Below are positions 2,827-24,889 of a DNA stretch of 48,924 bases, piece by piece. The translations under genes and the position numbers were made by a program. The stretch lies in the IMG/VR virus record IMGVR_UViG_3300045988_100566; one strand, given 5' to 3'. This DNA comes from a virus. The first letter of the stretch is position 1; each line of letters begins with the position of its first letter. The notes under the pieces are model-generated. The model saw only the letters and a list, made by a program, of their open reading frames with translations. It did no database searches and was not told the origin of the DNA.

Positions 2827-2940
2827 AGTTACTTCTCCTTGCTTTATAATTCTTACCCCTATAAACTAGTTTAAGCCCAGCTTAATACTGAGCTAACGCT
2901 ATTTCTGTTTGACTGTAAACAATTGTAGTAAACAGCCCAA

Positions 2941-3014: not shown

Positions 3015-3027
3015 AATCAAACTTAAA

Positions 3028-3099
3028 TAGCCCATACTGGATTCGAACCAGTAAATACAAGAATCAAAGTCTTGTGCCTTACCATTTGGCGAATGGGCT
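3028..3099 (-). tRNA. tRNA-Gln (UUG)
   Basis: AGCCCAT/ATGGGCT acceptor, GCC..GGC D arm (CGCCAAATGGTAAGGCA, as in bacterial tRNA-Gln), CAAGA/TCTTG anticodon stem with loop CTTTGAT, ACTGG/CCAGT T stem, TTCGAAT loop. Confidence 0.85.
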
Positions 3100-5978: not shown

Positions 5979-5981
5979 AAG

Positions 5982-6353
5982 TTAGCATCCTTTCATCTGT
6001 TCTTTATAGTATTCAGATTTTACTTTTATCATCTGGTCAGCTCTTTTTGCAAAAGCCATACAATTACACCAAGCACAATTACAATTCTCATTGATAAAAA
6101 ATTTGTTATGTGTCTCCTGGCATATTGTGCAATGCCTTTCTGAAACTTCTGAAGTACTTAGTTCAACAAACAAATGAACTACAATAGTTGGCATTTCTTT
6201 GTCATCCCTTTTTTCATACTCCACTTTTACTTTATGCATGTATTTCTTGCTTATTACATTTGAAGCTACCCATTTTGCAGCTTTCATATAAGCATCTTTC
6301 ATTGTTTCAGATACAAACTTTTTCCTAAAGAACTCTTCACAATAAACAACCAT
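5982..6353 (-). CDS. Hypothetical Cys-rich protein
   Basis: 123 aa with cluster HCTICQETHNKFFINENCNCAWCNC. GGAGGG-like RBS region. Confidence 0.55.
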   Translation of the reverse strand: MVVYCEEFFRKKFVSETMKDAYMKAAKWVASNVISKKYMHKVKVEYEKRDDKEMPTIVVHLFVELSTSEVSERHCTICQETHNKFFINENCNCAWCNCMAFAKRADQMIKVKSEYYKEQMKGC

Positions 6354-6368
6354 TTGTTTACCCTCCGC

Positions 6369-6851
6369 TTAAATATTCATACAACTTTTTCTTGCCAAAA
6401 TTGCCTGCTCTCTAGCAACTTCATCTGCCATCTCATTAAATGTATTACCTGAATGTCCTTTTACTTTCTTGAATATCACTTCAGCTTTTGCTTCTTTTAC
6501 AGCATCATGTAATATGATGAAGTCTTCCCATAAATCTCTATTCTTTACTGCATCTCCTTTTGATGTAGTCCAGCCATTTTTCTTCCATCTTAACACCCAA
6601 TCATTATTTATAGCATTTACTACATAAGCACTATCAGAATTAATCTCTATTACGTCACAGCTATAAAAGTTTTTAATCAGTAGCTTTTCTAAAGTTTTTA
6701 CTACAGCCATTAGCTCCATTCTGTTATTCGTTGTGTTGACTTCATAACCTTTCAGAACTTTACTTCCATGGCTCATATTTAATATGCTTGCCCACCCTCC
6801 TGGTCCAGGATTGTTTGAGCATGCTCCATCAGTAAATATTCTAAGTTTCAT
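6369..6851 (-). CDS. rnhA: Ribonuclease HI
   Basis: IFTDGACSNNPGPGGWA, TNNRMEL, INSDSAYV, KVKGHSGNTFNEMADEVA: the DEDD catalytic pattern of RNase H type 1. Confidence 0.9.
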   Translation of the reverse strand: MKLRIFTDGACSNNPGPGGWASILNMSHGSKVLKGYEVNTTNNRMELMAVVKTLEKLLIKNFYSCDVIEINSDSAYVVNAINNDWVLRWKKNGWTTSKGDAVKNRDLWEDFIILHDAVKEAKAEVIFKKVKGHSGNTFNEMADEVAREQAILARKSCMNI

Positions 6852-7211
6852 TTATTTCGCACCCCTTCTTTCATTCCTTTTTGAATACATAAACAAAGCA
6901 GCTTTTGCTAATACTTCATACATTGTTATTCCGCAAATTCTTACACCATAGTCAGTCAAGTCTTCTTCATTTACAATATACGCCGCCCATATGATACTCT
7001 TATCACTAGCCCACAAATCAGGCATAATACTTCTTACCCTCATCTTGTATTTCAAAGATAACTTCCATACAAGCTTTTCTACCTTTTCTAAAGGAATCTC
7101 TGCATCTTCTGAATAATTTGACAAAGGCTTTATTTTTCTTAAAGCTCTTTGAATACTTTCTTTGTTTTCTTTTACTCTACAATCTAAATTTATGATTTCT
7201 TTTATTGTCAT
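6852..7211 (-). CDS. Hypothetical protein
   Basis: Start moved to ATG 7211 (AAAGGTG 6 nt upstream). The track's TTG at 7229 lies inside the terminator stem. Confidence 0.55.
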   Translation of the reverse strand: MTIKEIINLDCRVKENKESIQRALRKIKPLSNYSEDAEIPLEKVEKLVWKLSLKYKMRVRSIMPDLWASDKSIIWAAYIVNEEDLTDYGVRICGITMYEVLAKAALFMYSKRNERRGAK

Positions 7212-10379: not shown

Positions 10380-10396
10380 GGCTGCTTTATGCAGCC
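10380..10396 (-). terminator. Weak hairpin overlapping the stop codon of the ATPase gene
   Basis: GGCUGC-AUAAA-GCAGCC followed by CCUUUCAC. The U tract is poor. Confidence 0.25.
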
Positions 10397-11481
10397 ACCT
10401 TTACTTTTCTTAACGCCTCGTGATAAATTGTATTTCCTTCAGGATTGAAAGTATTAATTGTGTCAGCATCCAATCCTTTCATTACAGCTATTTTGATGAT
10501 GATTTCCATATCCATTCCTGATTTCTCTAATTTTGAAACCATTGTCATACATCTATAGGAAAATGTAGCTCTGATTCCTTTTGCTTTTGCTTCGTCTCTC
10601 AACTGATGAATGAAACTTACAAGCTCTGAATTATTGCTTGTGATATTCATTTCAATGTTAAGACTATAATCAAATTCGATGATTGCGAATCTATCAAGTG
10701 TTGCCTGGTCTAAAACCATTCTTCCTGTGTACATCTCATCTGCACCTGAACCAACTGTATTGCCTGCTGCTACGAAGTGTACATGATTGAGATTTACCTT
10801 TCCATTTGGAAACTCAAAGTAACCATTTGCAATCGCTGCATTTAAAAGAACCAGAACTTCTGGGATTGAAGCATCCATCTCGTCTAAGAAAAAGATACAA
10901 TCCTTATCATCCTTGCAAGCTTTGTAAAATTCCGTCTCATGGAATTTACCACCTGCATCAATGAAACCTGTAAGTTTGTATTCTTGCTGAACACTATTGC
11001 TAAAGCAGAAGTTCCAACCAAGTTCATTTGCAATCTGCTCAACTGTGAAGTTTTTACCTGAACCAGCAGGACCTGCAAGGTAAACCGGAATGTTGCATTC
11101 CAGACAAGTTTTAATCTGATCGTATTTTTCATGTTTAACTGTACTATCATCTTCATCTTTTACTTCTGGAAGTTTTGGTTTTTCAACTTTTACCTTAGAG
11201 ACTTTCATCTCTTTCTTGATGTCATTTACAACACCTTTCGAAATATTACTTGAATCCGTTTTCTTAACACCTTTTGTTTCGTATACTCTTTCAACACTGA
11301 GTACTTTGAAGCTTTCATTGAAAGAAATCTTGCAACCATCAATGATCGTGTAATTATCATATGCTTTTCTAACATATGTGAAAACCTTTTCATTTCCGTT
11401 GAATTTGATTTCAACTACTACAAATCCTTCTTTTCTCTCAGCTGCCTTGATGTTTAATACTTTGAAATTTACTTTTGCCAT
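10387..11481 (-). CDS. AAA+ ATPase (AAA_5 / MoxR-CobS-like) with a roughly 120-aa unknown N-terminal domain
   Basis: Walker A LAGPAGSGKN, Walker B IFFLDEMD, sensor region AAGNTVG, arginine region TLDRFAII. Confidence 0.8.
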   Translation of the reverse strand: MAKVNFKVLNIKAAERKEGFVVVEIKFNGNEKVFTYVRKAYDNYTIIDGCKISFNESFKVLSVERVYETKGVKKTDSSNISKGVVNDIKKEMKVSKVKVEKPKLPEVKDEDDSTVKHEKYDQIKTCLECNIPVYLAGPAGSGKNFTVEQIANELGWNFCFSNSVQQEYKLTGFIDAGGKFHETEFYKACKDDKDCIFFLDEMDASIPEVLVLLNAAIANGYFEFPNGKVNLNHVHFVAAGNTVGSGADEMYTGRMVLDQATLDRFAIIEFDYSLNIEMNITSNNSELVSFIHQLRDEAKAKGIRATFSYRCMTMVSKLEKSGMDMEIIIKIAVMKGLDADTINTFNPEGNTIYHEALRKVKVAA

Positions 11482-11608: not shown

Positions 11609-12418
11609 TTAAACGTTTGCCAAGTCATCAATCGTGTTTATTGTTGAAACATCTTTCTTTATGAAAGCTGGTAATAAGTACTCGCCAGATTCTTTAAACA
11701 AATTATATGCTTCATCATCGCTTACTGGTAAACCATAACCATTAACAAAACTTTTTGTAACTTTTGGATAAACCTCAATAAATCTGAGCATTAATCTTCT
11801 CAACATACTTGGATGAACTAATGGAAAGGCAAGTTTACTAATATTGAGTTTTTCACCAGCAGATTTGATTCTTATTTTTGTAATTAGTTTCAAATCTCTT
11901 TTAATTCCACCCATCATGACGTTGAGATTTACTCTGTAACCTTGTGCTTCAAGTTTTTTCACAATCATCATTGCTTTAACTGATTCTTCAACAATCCGTT
12001 CAGCTTTAATACTACAATTATAACTGATTGACTTATTCAACGTTATTACCTTCTGCTTTACTGGAACCATTTTTCTATTTACCATGTTTGTTGGTACACC
12101 ACTCAAGTATAACGGAACGATTGGCTGAAAACCTGCAACTGAATTTATTGTTTTCGGTTTCATAGTTGGTTGAACTTGATTCTTAACTACATTTAATCTT
12201 TGTGTTAACTTACTAGACATATCAGTCCAACCATTCTTAAGAAGATCTGTTGCTTCTTCAAAGCTTCTTGTTTGTGTAAAACTATAATTATCACTTACAC
12301 TTTCATGTTTAGCCCATCTGAACGATTCATTAAATGGTGTATCACAGATATACTTGTAAAACTCATTTAAACTGTCATACTCAACTACTTCATAACCTTT
12401 AATGTTTTCTACTTTCAT
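11609..12418 (-). CDS. Hypothetical protein (own promoter and terminator; upstream partner of the AAA+ ATPase)
   Basis: 269 aa. AGAGGAGG RBS after the conserved class-I leader. No motif recognised. Confidence 0.65.
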   Translation of the reverse strand: MKVENIKGYEVVEYDSLNEFYKYICDTPFNESFRWAKHESVSDNYSFTQTRSFEEATDLLKNGWTDMSSKLTQRLNVVKNQVQPTMKPKTINSVAGFQPIVPLYLSGVPTNMVNRKMVPVKQKVITLNKSISYNCSIKAERIVEESVKAMMIVKKLEAQGYRVNLNVMMGGIKRDLKLITKIRIKSAGEKLNISKLAFPLVHPSMLRRLMLRFIEVYPKVTKSFVNGYGLPVSDDEAYNLFKESGEYLLPAFIKKDVSTINTIDDLANV

Positions 12419-12470
12419 TTTAAAACCTCCTCTAAGGAATATTTGTATTTGTTTGTGTTTTGATAATACT

Positions 12471-12499
12471 ATTATAACATATGTATTATGATTTGTAAA
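12471..12499 (-). promoter_or_regulatory. Class-I promoter P5
   Basis: AAAAAAACTATTTACA-17 nt-TATAAT. -35 at 12494..12499, -10 at 12471..12476. Confidence 0.75.
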
Positions 12500-12565
12500 T
12501 AGTTTTTTTAGTTTTGTTTTATATATATTTTTTCTTTTTCTTTTGCTACTTTTCTTTTTCTTTTT

Positions 12566-12775
12566 TCAATCAATAGTTTTCTTTTTGAATGACTTTGATA
12601 TATTGTAGTCACCTAAGAATCTGCCTTTTGGAATAGGTTTATGAAATTCATCAAATTTCTTTTTCTCTCTGAGTTCTGCTGTATGTTTTTCTTTTGCTTT
12701 GTTGTATTTTTCACAGTTTGCATGACAACCTAAAATTCTGTCTTTGCAGCTTTTGCAGCAATTTATACCCAACAT
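12566..12775 (-). CDS. Hypothetical Cys-rich small protein
   Basis: 69 aa, N-terminal CCKSCKDRILGCHANC cluster, basic C-terminus. Confidence 0.5.
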   Translation of the reverse strand: MLGINCCKSCKDRILGCHANCEKYNKAKEKHTAELREKKKFDEFHKPIPKGRFLGDYNISKSFKKKTID

Positions 12776-12783
12776 ACCTACAT

Positions 12784-13389
12784 TTACCTCTCTTCTTGAA
12801 GCAATTTTCTGTCACCTAAAAAGCCATACATAGCTATACCAGCACTGTCTGAAGCATCATTATTATACATATACTTTTGCCCATTTACCATAAAAGTACC
12901 TTTCGTTTTCCTTGTCTGGATTGGTATCAAGATACTTTTCTCAAAACCTTGTCTAATACACCATTCCACTGTTGGCCACTTCTCATCTGGAACACCAAAA
13001 TTATTGCTTTTGGGCTTACTTGTACCTATTATCTGGGCTTTCCATGCCCTAGTATCTACACTATATACTGGCACATTATATTTCTTACAAACATCGACAA
13101 TGGTAGCATTTAAAGCACCTATGGATTTTATATAGTCAATATTTAAAAATCCACCAGAACGTAGTCTGATTCTTTCTATTATGCATTCTACTTCGTCTGA
13201 ATGCGTTTTCATGCTACTTAAACATGATTCTAATTTTAGCATTATTTTTTGTCTTCTATCACTATTGCAATGACATTTTTCTAGATGTATGCTTGATACT
13301 TTTTTAAGCTTACCATCTGCAGCAATGCTAATTCCAGTATTCTTATAAGACTGGTCTAAGCCTATTACTATTTTGTTGTATTTACTCAT
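12784..13389 (-). CDS. ruvC: RuvC-like Holliday junction resolvase
   Basis: IVIGLDQSYKNTGISI (first Asp), IIERIRL (Glu), NDASDSAGIAMYG (C-terminal acidic pair). RNase H-like fold pattern. Confidence 0.6.
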   Translation of the reverse strand: MSKYNKIVIGLDQSYKNTGISIAADGKLKKVSSIHLEKCHCNSDRRQKIMLKLESCLSSMKTHSDEVECIIERIRLRSGGFLNIDYIKSIGALNATIVDVCKKYNVPVYSVDTRAWKAQIIGTSKPKSNNFGVPDEKWPTVEWCIRQGFEKSILIPIQTRKTKGTFMVNGQKYMYNNDASDSAGIAMYGFLGDRKLLQEER

Positions 13390-13553: not shown

Positions 13554-14381
13554 TTATTTTATTTTTATCTTACCACCTTCAAGATTCCAACAGCTTAATC
13601 TCATTGGACAATCTTTGCATCTTTTACAATCCGAAGACTTTGCATCATCTGGTCTTCGAACCATTTTGTGCTGCTTCATAAGTTTGTTGTAGTAGTATTT
13701 GATAGCTTCTGCTCTATCAATAAAAGGTGCAACAATACTTGGGTCATAATCATAAACTTCAATCTTGAAGTCTTGAGTATTTTTGTCTTCTGATAAAACA
13801 AATCCTTTATGAATACCAGTAAGATACATGTACCATTGACACTGCTTCCAAGCTGAGGGATGCTTAACCATTCTCTGAAATTGAAATGTATTGACTGATT
13901 TTATTTCACCAATCATTTTTCCATCATAAAACTCTGGGATTGAACAGATTATATCTGGAGTAAAGCTAATCTTATAAGCATCATTGAATTGCGTAACATC
14001 CAGATCTGAGGCTTTTGAATAACCAGCCCTTATAAATAACCTTTGCCACTTTTCATGTATCGCGTTCCCTTGTTCAAAGATTCTCATAAGCCCTACATTA
14101 ATCTGTTCACCTTGAAGTTGTTTATAAATAAGGCTCAGAACCTGCTGTCTTACACAAAAATCTTTATCACCTACAATCAATGAAGAAGCATGAAGTCCAA
14201 CTCTTTCTTGTGATTCCTGTCCTCTTGTCATAACTTGTTTTACGAACTTTGCTTCTTCACTGATATTCTTATCAAGATAAAATGTTGCATTTAAAATCTT
14301 TTCAAGCTTTGCTGCTTCAGATGATTGAATCTTCGTATTGTTACCTAAAGCACTTTTCTTGATGTCACTTACCAATCCCAT
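13554..14381 (-). CDS. Cas4/RecB-like PD-(D/E)xK exonuclease with Fe-S cysteines
   Basis: N-terminal Cys (DFCVRQ), IGEIKSV (ExK), QCQWYMY (QxxxY), C-terminal CKRCKDCPMRLSC. Confidence 0.7.
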   Translation of the reverse strand: MGLVSDIKKSALGNNTKIQSSEAAKLEKILNATFYLDKNISEEAKFVKQVMTRGQESQERVGLHASSLIVGDKDFCVRQQVLSLIYKQLQGEQINVGLMRIFEQGNAIHEKWQRLFIRAGYSKASDLDVTQFNDAYKISFTPDIICSIPEFYDGKMIGEIKSVNTFQFQRMVKHPSAWKQCQWYMYLTGIHKGFVLSEDKNTQDFKIEVYDYDPSIVAPFIDRAEAIKYYYNKLMKQHKMVRRPDDAKSSDCKRCKDCPMRLSCWNLEGGKIKIK

Positions 14382-14731
14382 CTTGATTCCTCTTTTAACC
14401 TTTCCATTTCTTTTGCAGAAATACCTACAATACCAACTGATTGATCTGAATCTGTATGCTTGAAGTATTCTCCATTCTGCGGGTACATATACCTGAACAT
14501 GGCATAGTTAGCAATGTCAAGCAAATATTCTGTGTTCTTCGTTTCCTCAAATTTCTCCAGGCATTTTTTAAGTGTTGCAATAGCATCTACGTTTCCTGTA
14601 GCAAAGTTTTTTCTCACTGAACCATATTTATAAAAGCTTACGCATATTAAATCTTTTCTTCTTTTGTCAAACTCTTCTGAGTACTCCGTCTTGAGAATCT
14701 CATCTACTATGCTTTCCGATTTGTTTATCAT
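14369..14731 (-). CDS. Hypothetical protein (possibly an all-alpha MazG-like NTP pyrophosphohydrolase fold)
   Basis: Start at MINKSES, ATGA-coupled to the deaminase stop. The FYKYG...KFEETKNTEYLLDIANYAMF pattern is only weakly reminiscent of the fold. Confidence 0.3.
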   Translation of the reverse strand: MINKSESIVDEILKTEYSEEFDKRRKDLICVSFYKYGSVRKNFATGNVDAIATLKKCLEKFEETKNTEYLLDIANYAMFRYMYPQNGEYFKHTDSDQSVGIVGISAKEMERLKEESRWDW

Positions 14732-15168
14732 AAAAATATCTTTCCCCCTTTTGTTATAACTCTTTTTATGCCCGCATTCTTTATCATCCTTAAACATATA
14801 GGGCATGGCGAACAATCTTTAACCTCAATGTATATATCTGACGTCCTCATCACTTTTTCTTCACAAGCTAAATACATTGTAGCTCCCAACATATCTTTTC
14901 TGCTGGCTGACAGCATAGCGTTCTGTTCAGCATGAACCGACTGACAATCTGAATAATCACCTGAGTTGTGTGCTACATTTGCCCTTGGGCATTCTTTATA
15001 AATATCACAACAATTTTTTTCCCCTCTTGCTGAACCATTGTAACCCGTTGCAATAATTTCATCATTTTTTACAATTACACAGCCATATCTTCTTTTCAGA
15101 CATGTACTTCTTTTTGTCACCGCTTTGGCAATCCCAAGATAATATTCATCTTTGCTTATTCTATTCAT
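14728..15168 (-). CDS. dCMP deaminase (ComEB/T4 cd type)
   Basis: TCLKRRYGCVIV, HAEQNAM, CSPCPICLRMI zinc motifs. The start lies among three ATGs after GGAGG (15168 preferred). Confidence 0.85.
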   Translation of the reverse strand: MNRISKDEYYLGIAKAVTKRSTCLKRRYGCVIVKNDEIIATGYNGSARGEKNCCDIYKECPRANVAHNSGDYSDCQSVHAEQNAMLSASRKDMLGATMYLACEEKVMRTSDIYIEVKDCSPCPICLRMIKNAGIKRVITKGGKIFL

Positions 15169-16678: not shown

Positions 16679-19423
16679 TTATCTTATCGATCTAGCATAT
16701 AAAGCTGAATTGTACTTCTTAACTCTATCTATATAAACTTTCTTTTTAAACTCCAAAGCACCTTGCTCTTTTAACGTATCTATAACCCTGGACGTAACTA
16801 CTCTCGATTTGCATCTGTCATAAAAATCATCAAAGTTTACAAATACGCCATTTTTCTTTCTTTCTTCAAGAATGAATTGAGCTGCTTTTTCTCCTACGTT
16901 TTTTATATCGGAAAGCCCTTGTTGAATAGCGTTTTCTCCTTGAACTTTTCTTAATTCCGTCTTTGGAAGAGAAAAATTTACATGGGGTAAAAATATTACA
17001 GATCCATCTCCTACTGCTTTTTCACAAAACCTATTGTATTCGGCTTCATCTTTTGCATATTTGAGTTTCGCAAACCAATACTCATTCGGATAGTATACTT
17101 TGTAGAACATCTCTTCTACACTAATTAATGAATAACCAACACCATGTCCTTTGTTGAAAGTGTAAGCTGTCATATTATCAAAAAGCTGCTCAGCTTCTTC
17201 TTTAGACATTCCGCATGTCTCTTTGGCACCAGCAATAAACTTATCTAATAAGCCTTGTCTTTGCTCATTATAAAGTTTTAATGCTTTTTCTGTCATCTGA
17301 TGGCCTTTCATCATTTTCATAACTTTATCGGCATCACCCCAATCCATTTTTCCTATACCGATACATATTCTTTGCACCTGTTCCTGATAAATGATTGTAC
17401 CATAAGATTCTGACGTATATTCCCAATAATATGAGTGCTTTGCATCTTCTGGATCCGCTTTATTTTCTGCATAAGCTTGCGGCATCTTAAGACTTAAAGG
17501 ACCAGGTCTATTCATTGAAGAAGCAGCTACTATATCGTCAAAGCAATCACAATCAATATCATTCAATATGTTTCTTGCTGTTGCTTTTTCAAACTGAAAT
17601 ACTCCATCACATTTTCCTTCTTTGAAATTTTCAAGAATCTTTTTATCTTCTACAATTTCATCATAAACTGCTACTATTCCTGTATTGAATCTTAAATCGC
17701 TTATAGATTCCATTGTCTTAAGTCCGAGAATATCAAACTTAATTACATTTATTGCTTCAACATCTGAAAGATCGTAGTTGGTAAACTCATCACCTTTTGA
17801 GTCTATCTTTAAAGCTACATAATCTAAAAGATTTCCTCCGGTTATTGCTACACCAGCTGCATGAGTTCCTATAAATCTTACTTTTTTGAACAGTTTGCAA
17901 AAATGATTAAGAATATTGTCATATTCTTTATTGTACATTTTTCCTTCATTTGAGTTTAGCAAAGACTCTTCGTCCAGAGTTCCATCTTGAATACAGCTAT
18001 TTACAAAAGACTTTATATTTGAAATCTCTTGTTTATTTATTTTTTTCTGCTCATCATCAATATCTCCAGATGTTTCAAGACCGCATACTTTTGCCAAGTC
18101 ATTAATCAAATTGTCTACTTTATACAATCCATAAGAACATATTCTTGCAGCATGTCCTTCATATTTTTCACAAAGATATTCAATAACTTCATGTCTTCTA
18201 GAAGTTTGAAAGTCTAAATCAATATCTGGAAATTTCTTTTTGTCTTTTCTTAAGAACCTTCTGAAATCAAGCCCGAATCTTAAGCTATCTACTTCCGTTA
18301 TTTTTAAAGCATATGCTACAAGGCTATTACAAACAGAACCTCTTCCTGGGCCTACAGCTATTTTTCGACCCTTAGCCCAGTTTACATAATCAGCCACTAT
18401 AAGAAAATAGTCTTCGAATCCATGGAACTTTATTACTTCCAATTCTTCTTTACATCTTTCGATATACTCTTTCTTATTTTTTCCTCTTTCTTTAAGTCCT
18501 TTCCTTACCTTGTTTAGCAATACTTTATAAGAAGATTCATTTTCATTTCCTTCTACTTTCGGAAGCTTTAACTCTAACTTATCTAAGTAATTATTTTCAC
18601 ACTTTTCTTCTATCTCTTCCAGATTGCGAATCATTTGTATTCCGAATTTTTTGCACTCAGCCAGTGAATCGAAATCATCTTTGTGCATTCTTACAAATCT
18701 TTTATATATCTCCTCTTCTGTTGGCATATATCTTTCAGCATATGTTTCTTCGATATGCTCCATATTATGCCCCGCTATCTCATGCATTTTAAGATAACTT
18801 GGTAAGTCTTCTTTAAGCCCTCTATGTGAATCAGATGTAAGTATGCATTTAATACCAAGCTTATTTGCTAACTTCATAGCTTCGACATTTACTTTTTCCT
18901 GCATGCCTACATCTGATATTTTATAAGGCTGAATCTCTACATATAAGTCATCTTCAAAAATGCTCTTCATTTTCTTAAGAAACTTAATCGCCTTATCTTT
19001 CTCATCTTTTATGATACACTGTGCAAGATATCCTGCTACACAAGCTGTTGAACAAATAAGTCCTTCATGGTATTTTTCTAGCAATTTGAAATCCCAAATA
19101 GGATTGTAATATTTCTGCTTTTCACCCTCATACTGAATCCTATTTAAGTTTCCATAACCTTCAAGATTTTTGGCTACCAAAATCAAATGATAACCTCTTG
19201 TTTGTGGCTTATGAACTGGTAAAAAATATCCTTCTACTCCTAAGATAGACTTTATACCTACCTCTTTGCAAGCTTGGTATGTCTGAATTAAGCTATTGGT
19301 GTTTCCGTGGTTAGTTGTACTTAAAGAAGTATGTCCTTTGCTTTTGGCAATTCTAGCCAATTCTAATGGTTTTCCAAAACCATCAAAAGTTGAAAACTCA
19401 TCATGTCTATGTAAATCAACCAT
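16679..19423 (-). CDS. dnaE: DNA polymerase III alpha-type replicative polymerase (DnaE-like, PHP domain, shortened C-terminus)
   Basis: 914 aa. PHP motif VDLHRHDEFSTFDG, palm/fingers segments GPGRGSV, PDIDLDF, SMNRPGP, IIYQEQV. Confidence 0.9.
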   Translation of the reverse strand: MVDLHRHDEFSTFDGFGKPLELARIAKSKGHTSLSTTNHGNTNSLIQTYQACKEVGIKSILGVEGYFLPVHKPQTRGYHLILVAKNLEGYGNLNRIQYEGEKQKYYNPIWDFKLLEKYHEGLICSTACVAGYLAQCIIKDEKDKAIKFLKKMKSIFEDDLYVEIQPYKISDVGMQEKVNVEAMKLANKLGIKCILTSDSHRGLKEDLPSYLKMHEIAGHNMEHIEETYAERYMPTEEEIYKRFVRMHKDDFDSLAECKKFGIQMIRNLEEIEEKCENNYLDKLELKLPKVEGNENESSYKVLLNKVRKGLKERGKNKKEYIERCKEELEVIKFHGFEDYFLIVADYVNWAKGRKIAVGPGRGSVCNSLVAYALKITEVDSLRFGLDFRRFLRKDKKKFPDIDLDFQTSRRHEVIEYLCEKYEGHAARICSYGLYKVDNLINDLAKVCGLETSGDIDDEQKKINKQEISNIKSFVNSCIQDGTLDEESLLNSNEGKMYNKEYDNILNHFCKLFKKVRFIGTHAAGVAITGGNLLDYVALKIDSKGDEFTNYDLSDVEAINVIKFDILGLKTMESISDLRFNTGIVAVYDEIVEDKKILENFKEGKCDGVFQFEKATARNILNDIDCDCFDDIVAASSMNRPGPLSLKMPQAYAENKADPEDAKHSYYWEYTSESYGTIIYQEQVQRICIGIGKMDWGDADKVMKMMKGHQMTEKALKLYNEQRQGLLDKFIAGAKETCGMSKEEAEQLFDNMTAYTFNKGHGVGYSLISVEEMFYKVYYPNEYWFAKLKYAKDEAEYNRFCEKAVGDGSVIFLPHVNFSLPKTELRKVQGENAIQQGLSDIKNVGEKAAQFILEERKKNGVFVNFDDFYDRCKSRVVTSRVIDTLKEQGALEFKKKVYIDRVKKYNSALYARSIR

Positions 19424-19425
19424 AA

Positions 19426-20121
19426 TTATTCACCTATATTTTTGAGATATTTTTCGTAGTCCCTTTTATAAAGATGCAGAGAACCTGCTATGTGTGTATA
19501 TGTTCCAAGTTCTAAGCCTAACTCCATAGACAACAAAACTTGTAAACATGTGAACTGAAACACATCATACGGAAATCCCATCCATAAATCATTTGACCTC
19601 ATATATGTTGTCATATACAACTTTCCTTCTCTAACGAAAAACTGCAAACATACTGTGCAATTCAAATCCTTCGTTGGATTCTCCAACGTATTTCTTGGTT
19701 CCTTGATGTGAATCACGGCTTGTCTTGTTTGACTGTCTTTCATAAGCAAATCTTTCACATACTTATACTGATCGAACCCGTACTTCTTTTTGATACACCA
19801 GCCATAATTGCTGTTTACTGTTTCTCCGTCATCAGACATTCTTTCCCAAGCTGAAGTATATTTACTTATCTCTTTTACATCATTATTTGCCGATAAGTAC
19901 CAGAGCATTTCTCCTATAGCATATCTCATAGAAAGTTTTCTTGTCGTATTAGTCATTATATTTTTTGTGGGATTTTCTATTACTGTCACAGCATTCAATA
20001 CTTCATTTACAACTTCGCCATCTCTGCTTTCCGATTCTTTAATTTCTTTTGTCATGATGTCGTACCATTTAAGCCATGCATCATCTGTACTTCTACTCTT
20101 AACAACTAAGTTTTCCAGCAT
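19426..20121 (-). CDS. ThyA-fold pyrimidine C5-transferase with Asp at the specificity position (dCMP hydroxymethylase/methylase-like)
   Basis: Start at MLENL (AAAGGAGAAAAA RBS). Aligns without gaps to ThyA: LNCTVCLQFFV vs APCHAFFQFYV (catalytic Cys155) and YMRSNDLWMGFPYDVFQF vs YQRSCDVFLGLPFNIASY. Asp186 (19564-19566) replaces the Asn. Confidence 0.7.
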   Translation of the reverse strand: MLENLVVKSRSTDDAWLKWYDIMTKEIKESESRDGEVVNEVLNAVTVIENPTKNIMTNTTRKLSMRYAIGEMLWYLSANNDVKEISKYTSAWERMSDDGETVNSNYGWCIKKKYGFDQYKYVKDLLMKDSQTRQAVIHIKEPRNTLENPTKDLNCTVCLQFFVREGKLYMTTYMRSNDLWMGFPYDVFQFTCLQVLLSMELGLELGTYTHIAGSLHLYKRDYEKYLKNIGE

Positions 20122-20132
20122 TTTTTCTCCTT

Positions 20133-21248
20133 TTATTTTAAAATATTTTCCAATTCTTTCTCTACACAATCTGCAATCGTATCAGCTTTCAGCTTTTCCA
20201 TATCTTTCTTCATTGTTTCAAAGCCGATTTTTGAACCAGACAAAATCATGCTTCTGAGTTTGACATACATTTCTTCCACATTATGGCAATAGCCATAATA
20301 GTCATCTGAGAATATCTCCGCATATCCAAACTTTTTAGGAAGTAAGCATTTTACTCCATAACATGCACAATCTGTAGTTGAAGAACACCACATACCTTCT
20401 GAATCAAAAAATGTATTCAAATGAATACCTACTTCTTTTGACTTTAAGAAGTTAACATAAGTTTCAGTATCAGACAATTCTACTTTTTTAAAGTATGGCT
20501 TGTCTTTTTCTACATCAAAATCTTTCCCGGAAGGATTTGTAAAATATACTGTTGGCATATTTTCTAAGCCTAAGTCGTCCTCTAACATATCCATTACTCT
20601 TACTAAGTTGTTATACGCACTTTTGTAATATACATCTGAAGAAAGCCTGTGGTTGTAGATTATGTTCATTCCAACATCAGCCTTTAAGTCCATAATCTCT
20701 TCATTCGCTGTTGGATAGAACACTCTTACATTATTTGTATTATAACCTAACTTCTTCATTTTGTAAATCACAAAATTTGAATTTACAAAACATAAATCGG
20801 CATTTTCTATACCTTCTCTCTGTCTGTATTCCAAAAACTTCATGTTGTCCGCTGCAAGCCAATGTATGTAAGTAACTACTTTTGATTCTTTGAATATATT
20901 CTTCAATGGAAGAACTTTGCTTGGTTCATTTACGAAAATAATGTCATACTTTTCGTTGTTGTTTTTGATTTCCATAAATCGACTTGAATCAAAATCAAAC
21001 CTTTCATTGAATGCACCTGCAAATTCTCTTTTTGTATTTCTAAATACAACTCCATCAAAATTTTTCCAGAAATCATTGTCAAGATCTTCGTACTTCATAT
21101 TAAACTCGAAGCAAACGTCTACTTCGTTTCTCTTAAACATTTGTGTACTGAGGAGTTTTCTTAAGAAAGTAATATTACTATCCTTGTTAAGTAATACTTT
21201 CCCATCTGACGACATACAACTTATCTGAGGAATCCACAAAATTCTCAT
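20133..21248 (-). CDS. GT-B-fold (GT1/GT4-like) glycosyltransferase candidate
   Basis: 371 aa. MRILWIPQ N-terminal Rossmann start, DIIFVNEP, ADLCFVNSNF, NIIYNHRL, and C-terminal DSEGMWCSSTTDCACYGVKCLLPKKFGYAEIF resembling EgfG..lEAmaxGxPvi. TAATG overlap with the radical SAM gene. Confidence 0.5.
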   Translation of the reverse strand: MRILWIPQISCMSSDGKVLLNKDSNITFLRKLLSTQMFKRNEVDVCFEFNMKYEDLDNDFWKNFDGVVFRNTKREFAGAFNERFDFDSSRFMEIKNNNEKYDIIFVNEPSKVLPLKNIFKESKVVTYIHWLAADNMKFLEYRQREGIENADLCFVNSNFVIYKMKKLGYNTNNVRVFYPTANEEIMDLKADVGMNIIYNHRLSSDVYYKSAYNNLVRVMDMLEDDLGLENMPTVYFTNPSGKDFDVEKDKPYFKKVELSDTETYVNFLKSKEVGIHLNTFFDSEGMWCSSTTDCACYGVKCLLPKKFGYAEIFSDDYYGYCHNVEEMYVKLRSMILSGSKIGFETMKKDMEKLKADTIADCVEKELENILK

Positions 21249-22186
21249 TACAAATACCTCCTTTCAGACTTTTTAACATTTTCAAAATCTGAATTAAATT
21301 TCACATATCTATCGCAGTTCTTACAAAAACTATAAAGCTTGTTTTCGTCATCAATTCCATCAAGGTTTTCAACCCTGAATTTTCCTTCCCAATCACAACC
21401 GTTATCATTTGTCGCTCTGCAACATGGGTACTCTGTACCATTCTGATCTATGACTCTATGTACTGCTTTAACATAACATTTTCCAGCAAAAGGTTTTCTT
21501 TTTTCAAACTCAAAACTTTCAACGTTTGTATCCGCTACCTTTTCACCCCTTGCTTTCAAAGTGTTTGATACTTCTGTAATATCAATCATCTGACTCTTTA
21601 CCGAATCAAACATTTCTTTTTTAAGAAATACATCTTCATTGGTGTGCACGGGAAAGAATCTTATTCCTACTACATTATCAAATTTGCAAAACTTCATAAA
21701 CACGTTGAATACATCTGTATAATTCTTAACTGATACCGTCATATTCAGTTTTACTTTAGTTTTAAGACTTCTTATGTTTTCTATCAGTCTTTTATATCTG
21801 CTCACATAGTTCTTTTCTAAACCAGAATACCTTATGCTAGCGTACATTTCTGGTGTACTTCCATCCATACTTGCTTGAACAAATTCTGCTCTTTCTAAGA
21901 ACTCTCTTATATGATTTTGTGATAAATCATAGTCAAGATTCGTAAACACCTGATACTTTAAATCTTTCTTTTCTTTAAGCAGCTCATTGAGTTTTGACAG
22001 TTTAGAATAACTCAATGGATCGCCACCTGAAAAAGTAAAAGTACAGTTTGGATTCTCTTCATAGAATTTGTTTATCTTTTCCTTCAGTAAATCAAAATCT
22101 ATCTCTCTGTGATTCCATGTATACTGTCTGCACATGTAGCATCTCTGGCTGCATCTTGTCGTTAAATCAAACTGAACACTAATCAT
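21248..22186 (-). CDS. Radical SAM enzyme with a Cys-rich (SPASM/twitch-like) C-terminal region
   Basis: CSQRCYMC = CX3CX2C. FSGGDPL (SAM glycine motif). C-terminal cysteines KCY...PCC...GCD...FCKNC. Confidence 0.8.
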   Translation of the reverse strand: MISVQFDLTTRCSQRCYMCRQYTWNHREIDFDLLKEKINKFYEENPNCTFTFSGGDPLSYSKLSKLNELLKEKKDLKYQVFTNLDYDLSQNHIREFLERAEFVQASMDGSTPEMYASIRYSGLEKNYVSRYKRLIENIRSLKTKVKLNMTVSVKNYTDVFNVFMKFCKFDNVVGIRFFPVHTNEDVFLKKEMFDSVKSQMIDITEVSNTLKARGEKVADTNVESFEFEKRKPFAGKCYVKAVHRVIDQNGTEYPCCRATNDNGCDWEGKFRVENLDGIDDENKLYSFCKNCDRYVKFNSDFENVKKSERRYL

Positions 22187-22213
22187 ATCAAATTCTCCTC
22201 TTTACTTGCTAAA

Positions 22214-22699
22214 CTATTTTTCTTTTAAGAACTTTACTATCTTCACTGTTTCATCTAAAGTATCATAGCTTGTTAACATCTTATTTCCGGCATATTTCTC
22301 GAATAAAAATTCGAACATCTCTTCATGCTTAGACAAATCTTTGCCATGCTCTTTTGAAGACCTAGCAATATCTTTTGGCTTTACTGTTACCAGCACAGTA
22401 TTGTTTAAGCTTTCCAGTATGCCATTTATGTACTCATAAGCTTTAGTTCCATCATACTTTCTGTCTATCAAGCCGTAAACTAATTCTGTCATATGAAACC
22501 TGTCAAATACTAAGTCTACTTTATCTTCACATAGCTTCAACATTTCAACTATGGCATTATTTATTTCAACATTGTGAGACATATTATCGAACGGAAATAA
22601 GTTCTTCATACTGAACTTTTTAAACCCCAACTCTTTGCAAAGTTTATTTGCTAAAGTAGTTTTTCCAACCCTGTCTATTCCTTCAATTATTACAATCAT
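22214..22699 (-). CDS. P-loop nucleotide kinase (thymidylate/dNMP kinase-like)
   Basis: MIVIIEGIDRVGKTTLANKL (GxDxxGKTT P-loop) and FDRFHMTELVYG (DRY-like). Confidence 0.65.
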   Translation of the reverse strand: MIVIIEGIDRVGKTTLANKLCKELGFKKFSMKNLFPFDNMSHNVEINNAIVEMLKLCEDKVDLVFDRFHMTELVYGLIDRKYDGTKAYEYINGILESLNNTVLVTVKPKDIARSSKEHGKDLSKHEEMFEFLFEKYAGNKMLTSYDTLDETVKIVKFLKEK

Positions 22700-22720
22700 T
22701 TTTTGTTCCTTTCTTATCTT

Positions 22721-22752
22721 AAAATCTTAAAAAGGGAGCTTAGAAAGCTCCC
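22721..22752 (-). terminator. Rho-independent terminator
   Basis: GGGAGCU-uucua-AGCUCCC (22734-22752) followed by UUUUUAAGAUUUU. Confidence 0.75.
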
Positions 22753-22757
22753 ATTGT

Positions 22758-23117
22758 TTATCGCTTGCTTTCTATTCTTTCTTTAACTACTTCGATTTTG
22801 TTTGAAATAGTTTCTACAAGTTCTTCTGAACTAATTCCAGAAAACATAGCTATATTCATAAGCACAATAAAACAATCAGCAATTTCTTCAGCTTTTCCTG
22901 CTTTATCATACTTTTCATTTCTGAAGTTCTTCCACCTTTTATCTGCATCAAGAACTTCACCTACTTCAGACATAAGCTGAAGGGTGTGGTATGAAGCTAA
23001 CTGAACGTTATCAATTGGCAACCCAGATACTAACTTCACATCATACAAGCCTTTATCCAGCATTTTCTGCTGATTTGTTTTTTGTGCTTCATACAAATCA
23101 GAAAAAGACTTATTCAT
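22758..23117 (-). CDS. MazG-like all-alpha NTP pyrophosphohydrolase
   Basis: Start at the ATGATG after GGGAGG (23117 or 23120). LQLMSEVGEVLDA...EEIADCFIVLMNIA = ExxE...ExxD metal motifs. Confidence 0.65.
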   Translation of the reverse strand: MNKSFSDLYEAQKTNQQKMLDKGLYDVKLVSGLPIDNVQLASYHTLQLMSEVGEVLDADKRWKNFRNEKYDKAGKAEEIADCFIVLMNIAMFSGISSEELVETISNKIEVVKERIESKR

Positions 23118-23931
23118 CATCTTCCTCCCAATCTTCTTCATCATCATACTCATCATCTTCATCCCAATCTTCCTGGGCTTTATCATATTCTTCAAGAAGA
23201 TTGATGTAGTACTTCTTAGGCTTCCTTGGCACAGCTTCAATCTTACGTTTTTTACATTCCTTAAACAATTCCTGAGGTGTCATGGAATCATAATCGTTTC
23301 CATCTTCATCCCAATCTTCTTCATCTTCAGGGTCTTCCTGCTTCTTTGACTTTGATGAAGTTTTTGATGCAGGCTTTCTTTTTGGCTTTTCCTCATAGTC
23401 TTCTTCATCTTCAGCATCTTCACACGGGAAAGCTTTATCCAGCATTTTGAGTATTGCCTTTTCTGCAAAAGGCTTTGCCTTCTTATTTCTGAATTTAACT
23501 TTGTCCATAGGTACTACTGAGAAAGTTTTATTCTGCTGCTTACCTGAAACACTGATAACGTAGTCTCTATCAGTAAGTGTTCCATAGTTCTCATACATAG
23601 CCATAAGAGCGGGAATCGGTGAGCAGTTGTTAACCGGGAACATGAACAGCTGTACCTCTTTTGTTTCATAATTCCAGACAGACCAAATGTATTGAGATCT
23701 CGTTCTGATTCCTTCCTCTTCACAGTAAGGACAATTCCTTCCAAACGTTTCTTCCTGACACGGCACGTTGATGCCGGCTTCAAAGCTGTCATGAAAAGTC
23801 ACTTTCATTCCGTCGTCCATATCATTAAGAAATCTTACTCTCTGCTTTGTACCTTCTCTGAAGTAAATGAATTTCCCTTTGTTCTGTCCTGACTTTTTAA
23901 CGTCGTTTTTGATGTCATCTAATAAACCCAT
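23110..23931 (-). CDS. gp32-like zinc-containing ssDNA-binding protein with C-terminal HeH motif and acidic tail
   Basis: Start at MGLLDD (AGGAGG RBS). FHDSFEAGINVPCQEETFGRNCPYC = H..C..CxxC as in T4 gp32. MTPQELFKECKKRKIEAVPRKPKKYYINLL. Ends EEDWEEDDE. Confidence 0.55.
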   Translation of the reverse strand: MGLLDDIKNDVKKSGQNKGKFIYFREGTKQRVRFLNDMDDGMKVTFHDSFEAGINVPCQEETFGRNCPYCEEEGIRTRSQYIWSVWNYETKEVQLFMFPVNNCSPIPALMAMYENYGTLTDRDYVISVSGKQQNKTFSVVPMDKVKFRNKKAKPFAEKAILKMLDKAFPCEDAEDEEDYEEKPKRKPASKTSSKSKKQEDPEDEEDWDEDGNDYDSMTPQELFKECKKRKIEAVPRKPKKYYINLLEEYDKAQEDWDEDDEYDDEEDWEEDDE

Positions 23932-24889
23932 TTTTATTCCTCCTGAAATCAATCATTGTCTTCTTATACATTTTATCAAAGAGCTGTTGTGTCATTTCTC
24001 CTGGGTCCTTTATACCTTTAAGATACCTAAACCTAACTACATTGAAATGCTCCTTTAAGAATGCTGTTCCTCTTTTCCCACATGGGTCATTGTCTAATGC
24101 ACTTATTATTGTGTTGACACCTTTATCTTTCAGCTTCTTAATTTGCTCACTTGACATCTTCCATCCAAGTATTGCTGCTACATTGCTCTCACCAAATTGT
24201 AAGAACTTTAGTCTGTCCATATATCCTTCTACGATGAAAACATAAGGCTTTAAACCATAACTTCCAACCAACGTTTCAGCTCTTCTAAACCCTTTGTTGT
24301 ACAGGTATTTCCTTTTCTTTTCAATGTCTTTATCGGTTGTTCTACATACCCAACCTTTGAACTTTCCATTGTCAATCATAGGAAACACTATGCTGTAGTT
24401 TTTGTTGTATGTTATCTTAGCTCTGCATTTATTCAACGCTTCCGCATCAAAACCTCTGTTGCTCATATACTTATAAGCTTCAATCTCTTCTGGTTCTTCT
24501 AGATTCCCCCAGTCAGTCTTTTTCAAACCATAATAAAAATCATAAGCTTGATTATATAACTCTCTTCTGACTGGCTTTCGTGACTTCCGATGAGTACTTA
24601 TCTTTATACTGCTGCATTTATCAGACTTAAGAATATCCAAGTAAACTTTATATGATTGTAAATCATCCAAACCGTTGTGCTTGCTTTCCATAAGTTTTAC
24701 AAATTTGTAAGCATCACCTGACAAACCACATCCAAAACAAAACCATGAACCTTCTTCAAGATTTATTATCATACTTGGATTTACATCTTCATGAAAAGGA
24801 CAAACAATTTTTTGCTTTTCAACACCTGTTTCGTATAATAAGTTGTAATACCAAAGTACCTTTGCTAAATTAAGTCCTTTACTTTCAAT
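23915..24889 (-). CDS. dnaG: DnaG-type primase (CHC2 zinc finger + TOPRIM); start codon unresolved
   Basis: CPFHEDVNPSMIINLEEGSWFCFGCG zinc finger, TOPRIM IVEGYMD and ALDNDPCG. CPFH (24791-24802) is upstream of the first ATG (24772). The frame is open to 24916 with no ATG/GTG/TTG. The upper bound given is an in-frame ATT at 24889. Confidence 0.75.
   Translation of the reverse strand: MESKGLNLAKVLWYYNLLYETGVEKQKIVCPFHEDVNPSMIINLEEGSWFCFGCGLSGDAYKFVKLMESKHNGLDDLQSYKVYLDILKSDKCSSIKISTHRKSRKPVRRELYNQAYDFYYGLKKTDWGNLEEPEEIEAYKYMSNRGFDAEALNKCRAKITYNKNYSIVFPMIDNGKFKGWVCRTTDKDIEKKRKYLYNKGFRRAETLVGSYGLKPYVFIVEGYMDRLKFLQFGESNVAAILGWKMSSEQIKKLKDKGVNTIISALDNDPCGKRGTAFLKEHFNVVRFRYLKGIKDPGEMTQQLFDKMYKKTMIDFRRNKNGFIR

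Follow-up and report, generated by a model that had tools for sequence, protein, structure and literature searches.

Which modified base, if any, does a gut phage build when it places a ThyA homologue, a putative glycosyltransferase (GT) and a radical S-adenosylmethionine (SAM) enzyme directly in front of its replicative polymerase gene? The question is raised by IMG/VR virus record IMGVR_UViG_3300045988_100566, a stretch of 48,924 nucleotides (the window, analysed over its whole length) from a phage of gut Clostridia, in which five minus-strand genes occupy positions 19,426 to 23,117. An initial annotation had read these genes as a MazG-like pyrophosphohydrolase, a deoxynucleoside monophosphate (dNMP) kinase-like protein, a radical SAM enzyme, a GT-B-like glycosyltransferase and an Asp variant of the ThyA fold, and had likened the set to the replacement of cytosine by glycosylated 5-hydroxymethylcytosine (5hmC) in phage T4. 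All five co-oriented open reading frames (ORFs) are present in the ORF list at these positions, directly upstream of dnaE as had been described, with the ThyA stop abutting the dnaE start, and each of the five gene calls could be verified, the GT-B fold and the ThyA variant being the hardest. Given these calls and the active-site signature described below, the T4 logic of a dCTPase-like enzyme, a dNMP kinase, a dCMP hydroxymethylase and a DNA glycosyltransferase is the best reading of the block. From sequence comparisons and structure models we propose, with a probability of about 0.7, a two-stage cytosine hypermodification in which 5hmC would be synthesised before replication and then be glycosylated in DNA and tailored by radical chemistry.

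The ThyA homologue carries the active-site signature of T4 gp42

The gene at 19426-20121 encodes a protein of 231 amino acids (aa) with a ThyA fold (PF00303, 3e-29), whose best match in the PDB is the CMP 5-hydroxymethylase MilA (5e-27). We aligned it and eight orthologues to Escherichia coli ThyA and T4 gp42, the reference sequences of which were confirmed to be identical to PDB entries 1aob and 1b49, respectively. The catalytic cysteine (C146 in E. coli) is aligned in the window protein and all eight relatives, and aspartate occupies positions 143 and 177 in the window protein and 8/8 relatives, as in T4 gp42. The Asp variant that had been noted earlier thereby extends to the full gp42 signature, comprising C146, L143D, N177D, H147T, C168N and Q165M with D169 retained. 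According to a 2026 paper in Nucleic Acids Research, whose residue positions separate the product classes of ThyA homologues, N177D selects cytosine, an acidic residue in place of L143 provides water access and hence a hydroxymethyl instead of a methyl product, and D169N is diagnostic of 5-hydroxy-dCMP synthases (PMC13326640). Because of this active-site signature (C146, L143D, N177D, D169 kept), the protein is predicted to be a dCMP 5-hydroxymethylase.

Two other assignments were considered and set aside. A canonical thymidylate synthase, which the initial annotation had named as the outcome of profile searches that would speak against its reading, is ruled against by N177D together with L143D and by the NCBIfam thymidylate-synthase equivalog models, all of which score far under their cut-offs (best model 79.9 bits, cut-off 327). 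A 5-hydroxy-dCMP synthase, and with it a 5-hydroxycytosine route, was rejected on account of D169, which is kept in the window protein and all eight relatives.

Candidate enzymes for the supply of 5hm-dCTP

The first gene of the block (22758-23117, minus strand) encodes an all-alpha nucleoside triphosphate (NTP) pyrophosphohydrolase of the MazG/dimeric-dUTPase-like type with 119 aa. Both of its Pfam matches are marginally above the cut-off (PF08761 with 24.6 bits, cut-off 22.9; PF03819 with 22.7 bits, cut-off 22), and it matches PHROG 173 at 6e-7. Sequences of the family show the metal-binding motifs E-x-x-E ... E-E-I-A-D, and the gene is kept in every related module. By analogy to T4 gp56, we propose that the enzyme would act as a dCTP/dCDP-ase that removes canonical dCTP and yields dCMP.

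The dNMP-kinase-like protein (161 aa; 22214-22699, minus strand) matches PHROG 761, "thymidylate kinase", at 5.6e-13. A profile of its family finds SPbeta YorR (8e-11) and thymidylate kinases (about 1e-5) in the PDB, and its PF02223 score of 24.8 bits is under the cut-off of 27. Invariant residues are G12 and K13 of the P-loop and D66 and R67 of the DR motif at the NMP site. Its proposed role, analogous to that of T4 gp1, is that of a dNMP kinase making 5hm-dCDP from 5hm-dCMP. A DNA kinase of the 5-HMUDK type is disfavoured by the thymidylate-kinase-like motifs and by the absence of the partner transferase: no aGPT-Pplase or AADT (amino-acid:DNA transferase) domain was found in the module or the other scanned ORFs of the window, a direct sequence comparison with 5-HMUDK not having been made.

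A glycosyltransferase fold resolved by structure prediction

The 371-aa protein encoded at 20133-21248 (minus strand) has no Pfam, PHROG or NCBIfam match, and a profile of its family retrieved nothing from the PDB sequences. As the family models are silent, its fold was resolved by structure prediction alone. The AlphaFold2 model, built from a 33-sequence alignment, reached a predicted local distance difference test score (pLDDT) of 91.8 and a predicted template-modelling score of 0.89, and it matches GT-B enzymes of the GT4 type with a probability of 1.0 and template-modelling (TM) scores of 0.65-0.74. The Foldseek matches in the PDB are the retaining GT4-type enzymes BshA, MshA, PimA, glycogen synthase and sucrose-phosphate synthase, and the top matches in the viral library are group-1 glycosyltransferases of phages and giant viruses. 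A PF13439 match occurs in one homologue, P0004, and fusion to a cupin (PF01050) in six. Similarity to the T4 beta-glucosyltransferase was not detectable (hhalign E 0.68). On this model the protein has a GT-B fold and is GT4-like, and its position between the radical SAM and ThyA genes within the replication module suggests DNA, with 5hmC, as a candidate acceptor.

In one related locus (L010), a 311-aa ORF between the ThyA and DnaE genes (12338-13273) shows a DDD motif and weakly matches GT8 (6e-4). Should this ORF encode a second transferase, as it may, the decoration of that lineage would be a disaccharide.

The radical SAM enzyme has a viperin-related core and is not a viperin

The remaining gene (21248-22186, minus strand) encodes a radical SAM enzyme of 312 aa, recognised by PF04055 (9e-11, 42.7 bits, cut-off 29.5) and by a CX3CX2C motif at residues 12-19, the cluster cysteines of which (C12-x3-C16-x2-C19) are conserved to at least 90%. 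Further conserved residues lie in the C-terminal part (C237-x12-G250-x4-C255, C256 and C288-x2-C291), where the pattern equals the CX9-15GX4C signature of SPASM/twitch domains. The SPASM model itself (PF13186) is detected in homologue P0054 and in a subgroup that is 25-29% identical to the window enzyme, not in the window enzyme.

The AlphaFold2 model of the protein (pLDDT 91.9) has structural neighbours that are generic across radical SAM enzymes, namely viperin with CTP, SkfB, MoaA, DesII, anSME and BlsE, the last with the highest TM score (0.68). In the PDB sequences, its profile finds fungal viperin-like enzymes (1e-8), SkfB and BlsE (5e-7). The NCBIfam viperin model (viperin_w_prok) matches at 2.6e-13 but with 49.8 bits against a cut-off of 180, and the match to PADLOC pVip (1.9e-17) covers only profile positions 2-192 of 257. 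An identification as viperin or pVip was therefore rejected: the score is below the cut-off, and a cysteine-rich C-terminus stands in place of the NTP-binding extension. The core is viperin-related and the C-terminal domain twitch/SPASM-like. An assignment as glycyl-radical activase, to which NrdG-like matches (1e-4 to 1e-5) might have pointed, was likewise rejected by the size of the protein and its SPASM-like tail, and is further disfavoured by the absence of a glycyl-radical enzyme among the scanned ORFs.

Members of the family come almost only from phage contigs. The enzyme had no tblastn match in 50,697 GenBank phage records (E <= 1e-3) and a single match in 185,579 species genomes, on a 6.7-kb contig of a Clostridia metagenome-assembled genome from yak colon. 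An exhaustive profile search returned 43 representative clusters at E <= 1e-30 and 1,322 proteins at E <= 1e-10. Of the closest multi-domain relatives outside the family that we examined, 3/9 are radical SAM/SPASM repeats fused to GT2 domains.

Distant homologues of the enzyme also occur in bacterial glycan clusters. Four such clusters (L019, L020, L022 and L023) contain a radical SAM/SPASM protein in a conserved cassette with GmhA, an HldD-like epimerase, HldE, an FkbM-type methyltransferase, a split transketolase and an epimerase of the short-chain dehydrogenase/reductase type, which looks like an uncharacterised heptose-modification pathway. The homologues P0101, P0108 and P0109 lie in glycan clusters of the order GmhA-HldD-HldE ... 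methyltransferase-radical SAM-transketolase, the three contexts representing one family. With scores of about 65-70 bits they are not close relatives of the phage enzyme, and a link to heptose by way of them was downgraded.

Module conservation, insertion and exchange among relatives

Related loci were recovered from IMG/VR, ENA or Logan through the glycosyltransferase or the radical SAM enzyme. The order SSB-MazG-kinase-radical SAM-GT-ThyA-DnaE recurs in each of the 12 loci (12/12), with GT identities down to 43%, and because of this conservation the arrangement of the five genes is not due to chance. A megablast search with the module against GenBank phages returned no match. By DnaE, the nearest cultured relatives are the Agathobaculum phages AB434P2/P3 (67% identical) and the Clostridium phages CS266P1-4 (about 50%). 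The SSB-like gene directly adjoins dnaE in CS266P3 and Dulem virus 36, which are devoid of the module; this gene therefore marks the upstream boundary of the module, which is an insertion between these two genes in the replication module. In both genomes dnaE is split into two ORFs by intervening ORFs (CS266P3, L002, 8986-12552; Dulem virus 36, L040, 9977-13873). The interrupting ORF of CS266P3 encodes an I-HmuI-like HNH endonuclease, which suggests an intron or intein-type insertion.

AB434P2 has a variant of the module. It retains MazG, kinase and ThyA (68% identical), but the radical SAM enzyme and the glycosyltransferase are replaced by four other proteins, one of them HAD/APH-like, one cytidylyltransferase-like and two unknown. 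The order (L001, 401-5582) is MazG, kinase, HAD/APH-like, cytidylyltransferase-like, 328-aa unknown, ThyA, 361-aa unknown and DnaE; of these module genes, all except ThyA are annotated as "hypothetical". A gene set of this type, with an HAD/APH-like and a cytidylyltransferase-like protein, has been shown to make heptosyl-5hmC (bioRxiv 10.1101/2023.12.21.572611), and by analogy the AB434P2 cassette is probably a pathway of the heptosyl-5hmC type. Because AB434P2 exchanges only the latter part, we regard MazG, kinase and ThyA as the constant supply of 5hmC and the radical SAM enzyme and glycosyltransferase as an exchangeable decoration part; the radical SAM enzyme belongs to this variable part and not to the supply, since it is lost together with the glycosyltransferase.

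The relatives also differ in their sugar-activation genes. L003 and L009 encode an HddA-like GHMP kinase and an HddC-GmhB-GmhA triple fusion, which together constitute a GDP-heptose route. This complete GDP-heptose-type route is contained in two genes (L003, 9659-12480; L009, 14637-17474), the 610-aa fusion consisting of an HddC-like nucleotidyltransferase, a GmhB-like HAD phosphatase and a GmhA-like SIS isomerase. An RfaE-domain-II-like nucleotidyltransferase is present in L004, L010-L012 and L014-L016, and no sugar-activation gene was found in the window, its near-identical relatives or L013. Taken together, the activation genes of the relatives are of the GDP- or ADP-heptose type.

More distant modules rearrange the same components. 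In L021, kinase and radical SAM enzyme are fused in one 494-aa ORF (5615-7099), the kinase occupying residues 1-164 and the radical SAM enzyme residues 191-494, and a 281-aa protein ("fam281") takes the place of the GT4-like glycosyltransferase. Three human gut loci with the same phage backbone (L026, L029 and L033) have the order SSB-MazG-radical SAM-kinase-fam281-ThyA-DnaE, their radical SAM enzymes forming the 25-29%-identity subgroup; a scan of IMG/VR with this second subgroup retrieved nothing. Two loci with a different backbone, which contains PrimPol/D5 and SNF2 genes (L018 and L024), show the order fam281-radical SAM-kinase-ThyA. In L027 (9265-15464), there are two genes for radical SAM enzymes (342 and 281 aa), the ThyA gene is flanked by those for unknown proteins of 407 and 391 aa, and the MazG-like protein bears a Cys/Gly-rich C-terminal extension. 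A relationship of fam281 (L018, L021, L024 and L026), or of the 407- and 391-aa proteins of L027, to the T4 beta-glucosyltransferase is not supported. There is a short motif resemblance by eye, with an hhalign P of 0.011 and a probability of only 4%; phmmer against the PDB as well as Pfam and PHROGs yielded nothing, and we do not claim this partner protein as a glycosyltransferase.

Proposed pathway

In the first stage, before replication, the MazG-like enzyme would convert dCTP/dCDP to dCMP, the ThyA homologue would hydroxymethylate C5 of dCMP with methylene-tetrahydrofolate to give 5hm-dCMP, and the thymidylate-kinase-like enzyme would form 5hm-dCDP, from which a host NDP kinase would make 5hm-dCTP. 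The adjacently encoded DnaE would incorporate 5hm-dCTP and must then accept a modified dNTP. In the second stage, after replication, the GT4-like GT-B enzyme would transfer a sugar from an NDP-sugar to the 5-hydroxymethyl group in DNA, and the twitch-type radical SAM enzyme would tailor this decoration. All substrates in this scheme, DNA as the acceptor of the glycosyltransferase, the identity of the sugar and the radical reaction are what we infer from the gene set and its relatives. What the sequence and structure analyses themselves show are the folds, the gp42-type active site, and the conservation, insertion and modular exchange of the gene set.

For the radical SAM step, we prefer the abstraction of a hydrogen from a sugar C-H bond, followed by oxidation via an auxiliary cluster, by dehydration or by epimerisation, on either the NDP-sugar donor or the DNA-bound sugar. 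Such chemistry would proceed in the manner of BlsE and DesII, and BtrN and HygY are further radical enzymes that serve as models for it. Sugar tailoring is favoured because the enzyme travels with the decoration part and is lost with the glycosyltransferase in AB434P2, and because its gene overlaps the GT gene and some relatives outside the family are fused to glycosyltransferases. Further links to glycosyl transfer are the two radical SAM enzymes with additional candidate transferases in L027 and the sugar-radical enzymes BlsE and DesII among the structural neighbours. We give sugar tailoring about an even chance; that the enzyme does something else altogether seems rather unlikely, and that it acts on the base or a free nucleotide more unlikely still.

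At somewhat less than even odds, and hence tentatively, the enzyme would represent a new, O2-independent class of DNA-hypermodification enzymes that is confined to phages of gut anaerobes and yields a cytosine derivative unseen in any DNA. Candidate substrates would then be glycosyl-5hmC, the NDP-sugar donor or 5hmC, and a candidate product would be 5hmC with its sugar in a keto, deoxy, epimerised or decarboxylated form. That the final base is an undescribed one, as the initial annotation had suggested from the gene combination, is a well-founded hypothesis and not a result.

Avoidance of restriction sites

As an indirect test, we compared observed with expected counts of 4-bp palindromes in 15 module-bearing loci and the two module-less genomes. 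CS266P3 is strongly depleted of GC-containing palindromes (AGCT 0 observed/36 expected, CCGG 1/15, GGCC 1/11, CGCG 2/13), as is Dulem virus 36 of GGCC (1/25), and the window keeps them (AGCT 264/283, CCGG 61/48, GGCC 32/43). A comparably extreme loss of GC-containing 4-mers was observed in 0 of the 15 module-bearing loci, the lowest ratio being that of GGCC in L009 (6/22). The retained palindromes fit protection by cytosine modification, a suggestion that is weak and confounded. Across the module-bearing relatives, the avoidance of GATC ranges from none (78/78) to total (0/64). In the window, CATG, CTAG and AATT are also moderately low, and GAATTC is observed 0 times with 10 expected.

Weighing of alternative explanations

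Several observations weigh against the proposed pathway. The palindrome comparison includes only two module-less genomes, which come from different hosts, and GATC is strongly avoided in the window (27 observed/162 expected, z = -10.6) and in several other carriers (0/64, 0/50 and 1/56). This persisting avoidance would be unexpected if every C were protectively modified and argues against blanket protection. The assignments of the MazG-like enzyme and the kinase depend on weak scores close to the cut-offs. The glycosyltransferase is without a sequence-family match, and its acceptor could in principle differ from DNA; the window encodes no sugar-activation gene, so that donor and sugar are not indicated by its genes. 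The core of the radical SAM enzyme is closest to viperins, which act on NTPs. Its gene adjoins the kinase gene everywhere and is fused to it in L021, which parallels viperin-kinase pairs and fits a nucleotide substrate. The enzyme moreover co-occurs with two unrelated candidate transferase families, the GT4-like one and fam281, and is hence not bound to one glycosyltransferase.

One alternative would do without base replacement. Nucleotide metabolism would then be ordinary, with thymidylate synthase or dCMP methylase activity in the ThyA homologue, dTMP as the substrate of the kinase and a house-cleaning role for MazG, and the glycosyltransferase and radical SAM enzyme would have a target other than DNA, such as a host surface glycan or a small molecule. 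The database labels of homologues ("thymidylate synthase", "thymidylate kinase"), the usual targets of GT4 enzymes, which are lipids, sugars and small molecules, and the persisting GATC avoidance are in line with such roles. They are difficult to reconcile, however, with the exact match to T4 gp42, in which N177D predicts a cytosine substrate and L143D a hydroxymethyl product (criteria from PMC13326640), and with the failure of all NCBIfam thymidylate-synthase equivalogs. In addition, the five genes move together, inserted as a block between the SSB-like gene and dnaE, and the exchange with a cassette of the 5hmC-heptosylation type in AB434P2 ties this slot to DNA decoration. We consider this alternative very improbable.

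In the main rival reading, the radical SAM enzyme would act before replication on a free nucleotide (5hm-dCMP, 5hm-dCDP, 5hm-dCTP or dCTP), being the downstream partner of the kinase as in viperin/CMPK2. The base entering DNA would then already differ from 5hmC, for example by an oxidised or rearranged C5 substituent that is subsequently decorated by the glycosyltransferase. The best family models of the enzyme are indeed viperin models, the PADLOC matches include the model "viperins associated with kinases", and the top PDB matches by sequence and structure are viperins bound to CTP; the invariable adjacency of kinase and radical SAM genes, the single fusion and the pairing with either of two candidate transferases agree with this. 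Yet the NCBIfam score is less than a third of its cut-off, a cysteine-rich twitch/SPASM-like domain replaces the viperin NTP-binding extension, and AB434P2 has kinase and ThyA without the radical SAM enzyme, which shows the kinase to be independent of it. Viperin-type chemistry on a deoxynucleotide would moreover give a chain terminator, and the glycosyltransferase would still require a hydroxyl acceptor, which makes action on a free nucleotide decidedly unlikely. Chain termination would be the very purpose if kinase and radical SAM enzyme were a phage viperin-like system for host takeover or the exclusion of competing phages that merely lies beside a plain 5hmC-glycosylation cluster. Besides the pVip matches, a preprint in which "annotated viperins" close to GT/ThyS clusters figure as immune-type genes (bioRxiv 10.1101/2023.12.21.572611) might be cited for this. 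The radical SAM gene, however, lies embedded between those for the kinase and the glycosyltransferase, with translational coupling, the pair is conserved across all module variants of two phage backbones, and the enzyme is lost along with the glycosyltransferase in AB434P2. Since it also fails the viperin cut-off, lacks the viperin C-terminus and belongs to a nearly phage-only family, an independent viperin-like system is the most improbable of the explanations that we weighed, and the two-stage pathway with 5hmC synthesis, glycosylation and radical tailoring remains the preferred one.

Layout of the locus and neighbouring genes

At about 49 kb and 35% GC, the window represents a nearly complete genome, and almost all of its genes are on the minus strand. 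It is siphovirus-like, with terminase, portal, major head protein, tail tube, tape measure and Dit; a sheath gene was not found. The five genes are tightly packed between the SSB-like gene (23110-23952, minus strand) and dnaE (16679-19423, minus strand), an ORF for a DnaE-type replicative polymerase (PHP and Pol III alpha), whose orthologues match the Pfam models PHP and DNA_pol3_alpha. The label "SSB-like" refers only to the acidic C-terminal tail of the upstream protein, which had no match in a Pfam scan. The MazG gene, which has GGGAGG as its Shine-Dalgarno sequence, shares 8 nt at its start with the stop of this upstream gene, and the radical SAM and GT genes overlap, stop with start, at 21248. 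Between the MazG and kinase genes, immediately past the MazG stop, lies the terminator that had been recognised earlier (22734-22752, minus strand), a terminator-like hairpin with an 8-bp stem including 5 GC pairs, GGGAGCTTTCTAAGCTCCC, followed by TTTTT. Terminator-like sites number 10 in the region with 1.5 expected.

A dCMP deaminase gene at 14728-15168 (minus strand), which had been counted as part of the pathway, is real (PF00383, 1.6e-19; PHROG 174, 2e-43), but its linkage to the module is inconsistent: it was seen in some relatives and is absent from the sampled regions of others. We propose an accessory role in which it would supply dUMP and lower dCMP. Other genes of the replication module encode an RNase H (6369-6851), an AAA+ ATPase (10387-11481), a DUF7192 protein (11609-12418), a RuvC-like resolvase (12784-13389) and a Cas4/RecB-like exonuclease (13554-14381). 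A cell-wall hydrolase is encoded at 4553-5137. Two minus-strand tRNA genes, tRNA-Met (CAT, 2940-3015) and tRNA-Gln (TTG, 3028-3099), are located between a small-terminase-like helix-turn-helix gene and the next ORF; AB434P2 has five tRNAs, Gln (TTG) among them.

Implications

Phages with the module are widespread in the guts of humans and animals. Hypermodification of phage DNA sets the sensitivity to restriction enzymes, CRISPR and type IV systems, it disrupts sequencing and cloning workflows, and it is a source of new enzymes for DNA chemistry. If the radical SAM enzyme tailors a DNA-borne sugar or base, such gut phages would likely be under-represented or mis-called in sequencing data, and "viperin-like" genes within phage modification clusters would find an explanation. 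The enzyme would then also provide an oxygen-independent route to new DNA chemistry, and the five-gene set of about 3.7 kb would be open to reconstitution. AB434P2 is an isolate and permits the direct measurement of its DNA chemistry.

Comparison with known systems

The closest functional parallel is the glucosyl-5hmC system of T4 and the T-even phages, where gp56, gp42, gp1 and the alpha- and beta-glucosyltransferases follow the same four-function logic. The gp42 signature is common to both, and the window also has an all-alpha NTP pyrophosphatase, a dNMP-kinase-like protein, a GT-B transferase and a dCMP deaminase. In contrast to T4, the window represents a small siphovirus of gut Clostridia with a DnaE polymerase and with the genes in one operon-like block. 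Its kinase is thymidylate-kinase-like, its MazG-like protein has only 119 aa, its glycosyltransferase is GT4-like without similarity to the beta-glucosyltransferase, and its radical SAM enzyme has no T4 counterpart.

A ThyA-like hydroxymethylase, a glycosyltransferase and a sugar-tailoring radical SAM enzyme also form a trio in the mildiomycin (MilA) and blasticidin S (BlsE) context. BlsE is a radical SAM enzyme that acts on the sugar of cytosylglucuronic acid, and the window enzyme is 13-16% identical to it; the glycosyltransferase (MilC/BlsD) and MilG presumably have their roles in the same cytosine-nucleoside antibiotic pathways. Those pathways, however, are natural-product chemistry on free nucleotides and free bases in Streptomyces. 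The parallel is a lead and not a membership, and nothing indicates a uronic acid as the sugar of the phage.

With the arabinosyl-5-hydroxycytosine pathways of RB69 and DLP3 (PMC13326640), the window shares N177D and an acidic position 143; for the cognate dNMP kinase and the DNA glycosyltransferases of those pathways it has candidate counterparts. The 5-hydroxy-dCMP synthases RB69 gp48 and DLP3 gp80 carry D169N and use flavin and O2 (PMC13326640), whereas the window protein and its eight relatives keep D169 and the hosts of window-type phages are probably strict anaerobes.

Glycosylated 5hmC, including heptosyl-5hmC, is already known from a preprint survey of ThyS-associated GT-B clusters, in which an HAD/APH-like protein, a cytidylyltransferase and a GT-B enzyme of "contig 53" make heptosyl-5hmC (bioRxiv 10.1101/2023.12.21.572611). 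These clusters likewise combine GT-B enzymes with pre-replicative pathways of the ThyS type; relatives of the window contain heptose-type activation genes, and the AB434P2 cassette resembles contig 53. They differ in that the preprint reports no radical SAM step ("radical" occurs 0 times) and in that the window is without activation genes and has another GT family. In passing, the preprint notes "annotated viperins (pVip)" in the vicinity of GT/ThyS clusters and counts them as immune-type genes (bioRxiv 10.1101/2023.12.21.572611). As the window enzyme matches the PADLOC pVip models, these may be members of its family that were misread. The pVip-kinase pairs and the vertebrate viperin-CMPK2 pair share with the window the radical SAM core and a partner of the thymidylate-kinase family, once fused, but the window enzyme lies in a phage DNA-modification operon and not in a defence locus, fails the viperin cut-off and has a different C-terminal domain.

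In the literature that we searched, a radical SAM step in phage DNA hypermodification is described only for the thymidine pathway of Pseudomonas phage M6, in agreement with the initial annotation, which linked such enzymes only to some thymidine routes. There, 5-NedU is made by 5-HMUDK, an amino-acid:DNA transferase, a pyridoxal-phosphate (PLP) decarboxylase and the radical SAM isomerase gp53, described as the first enzyme of the radical SAM type for which installation of a DNA modification was demonstrated (PMC8989533). In both systems a radical SAM enzyme belongs to a phage cluster for the hypermodification of a pyrimidine, with a ThyA-type hydroxymethyl pyrimidine as the starting point. M6, however, combines thymidine with amino-acid chemistry and the window, on the proposed pathway, cytosine with a sugar, and the window module contains no AADT/aGPT-Pplase or PLP enzyme. 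An identification of the window enzyme as a gp53-type isomerase was rejected, as it had no tblastn match in the 50,697 phage records, among which M6 is presumed to be included, and as the partner domains are missing. A description of the window enzyme itself was not found in the literature search. Known cytosine pathways employ ThyA homologues or TET-like oxygenases followed by transferases. What is new here is a conserved, phage-restricted radical SAM enzyme of the twitch type as a fixed member of a cytosine pathway, which, if the proposed pathway is true, would bring a radical SAM step to cytosine hypermodification for the first time.

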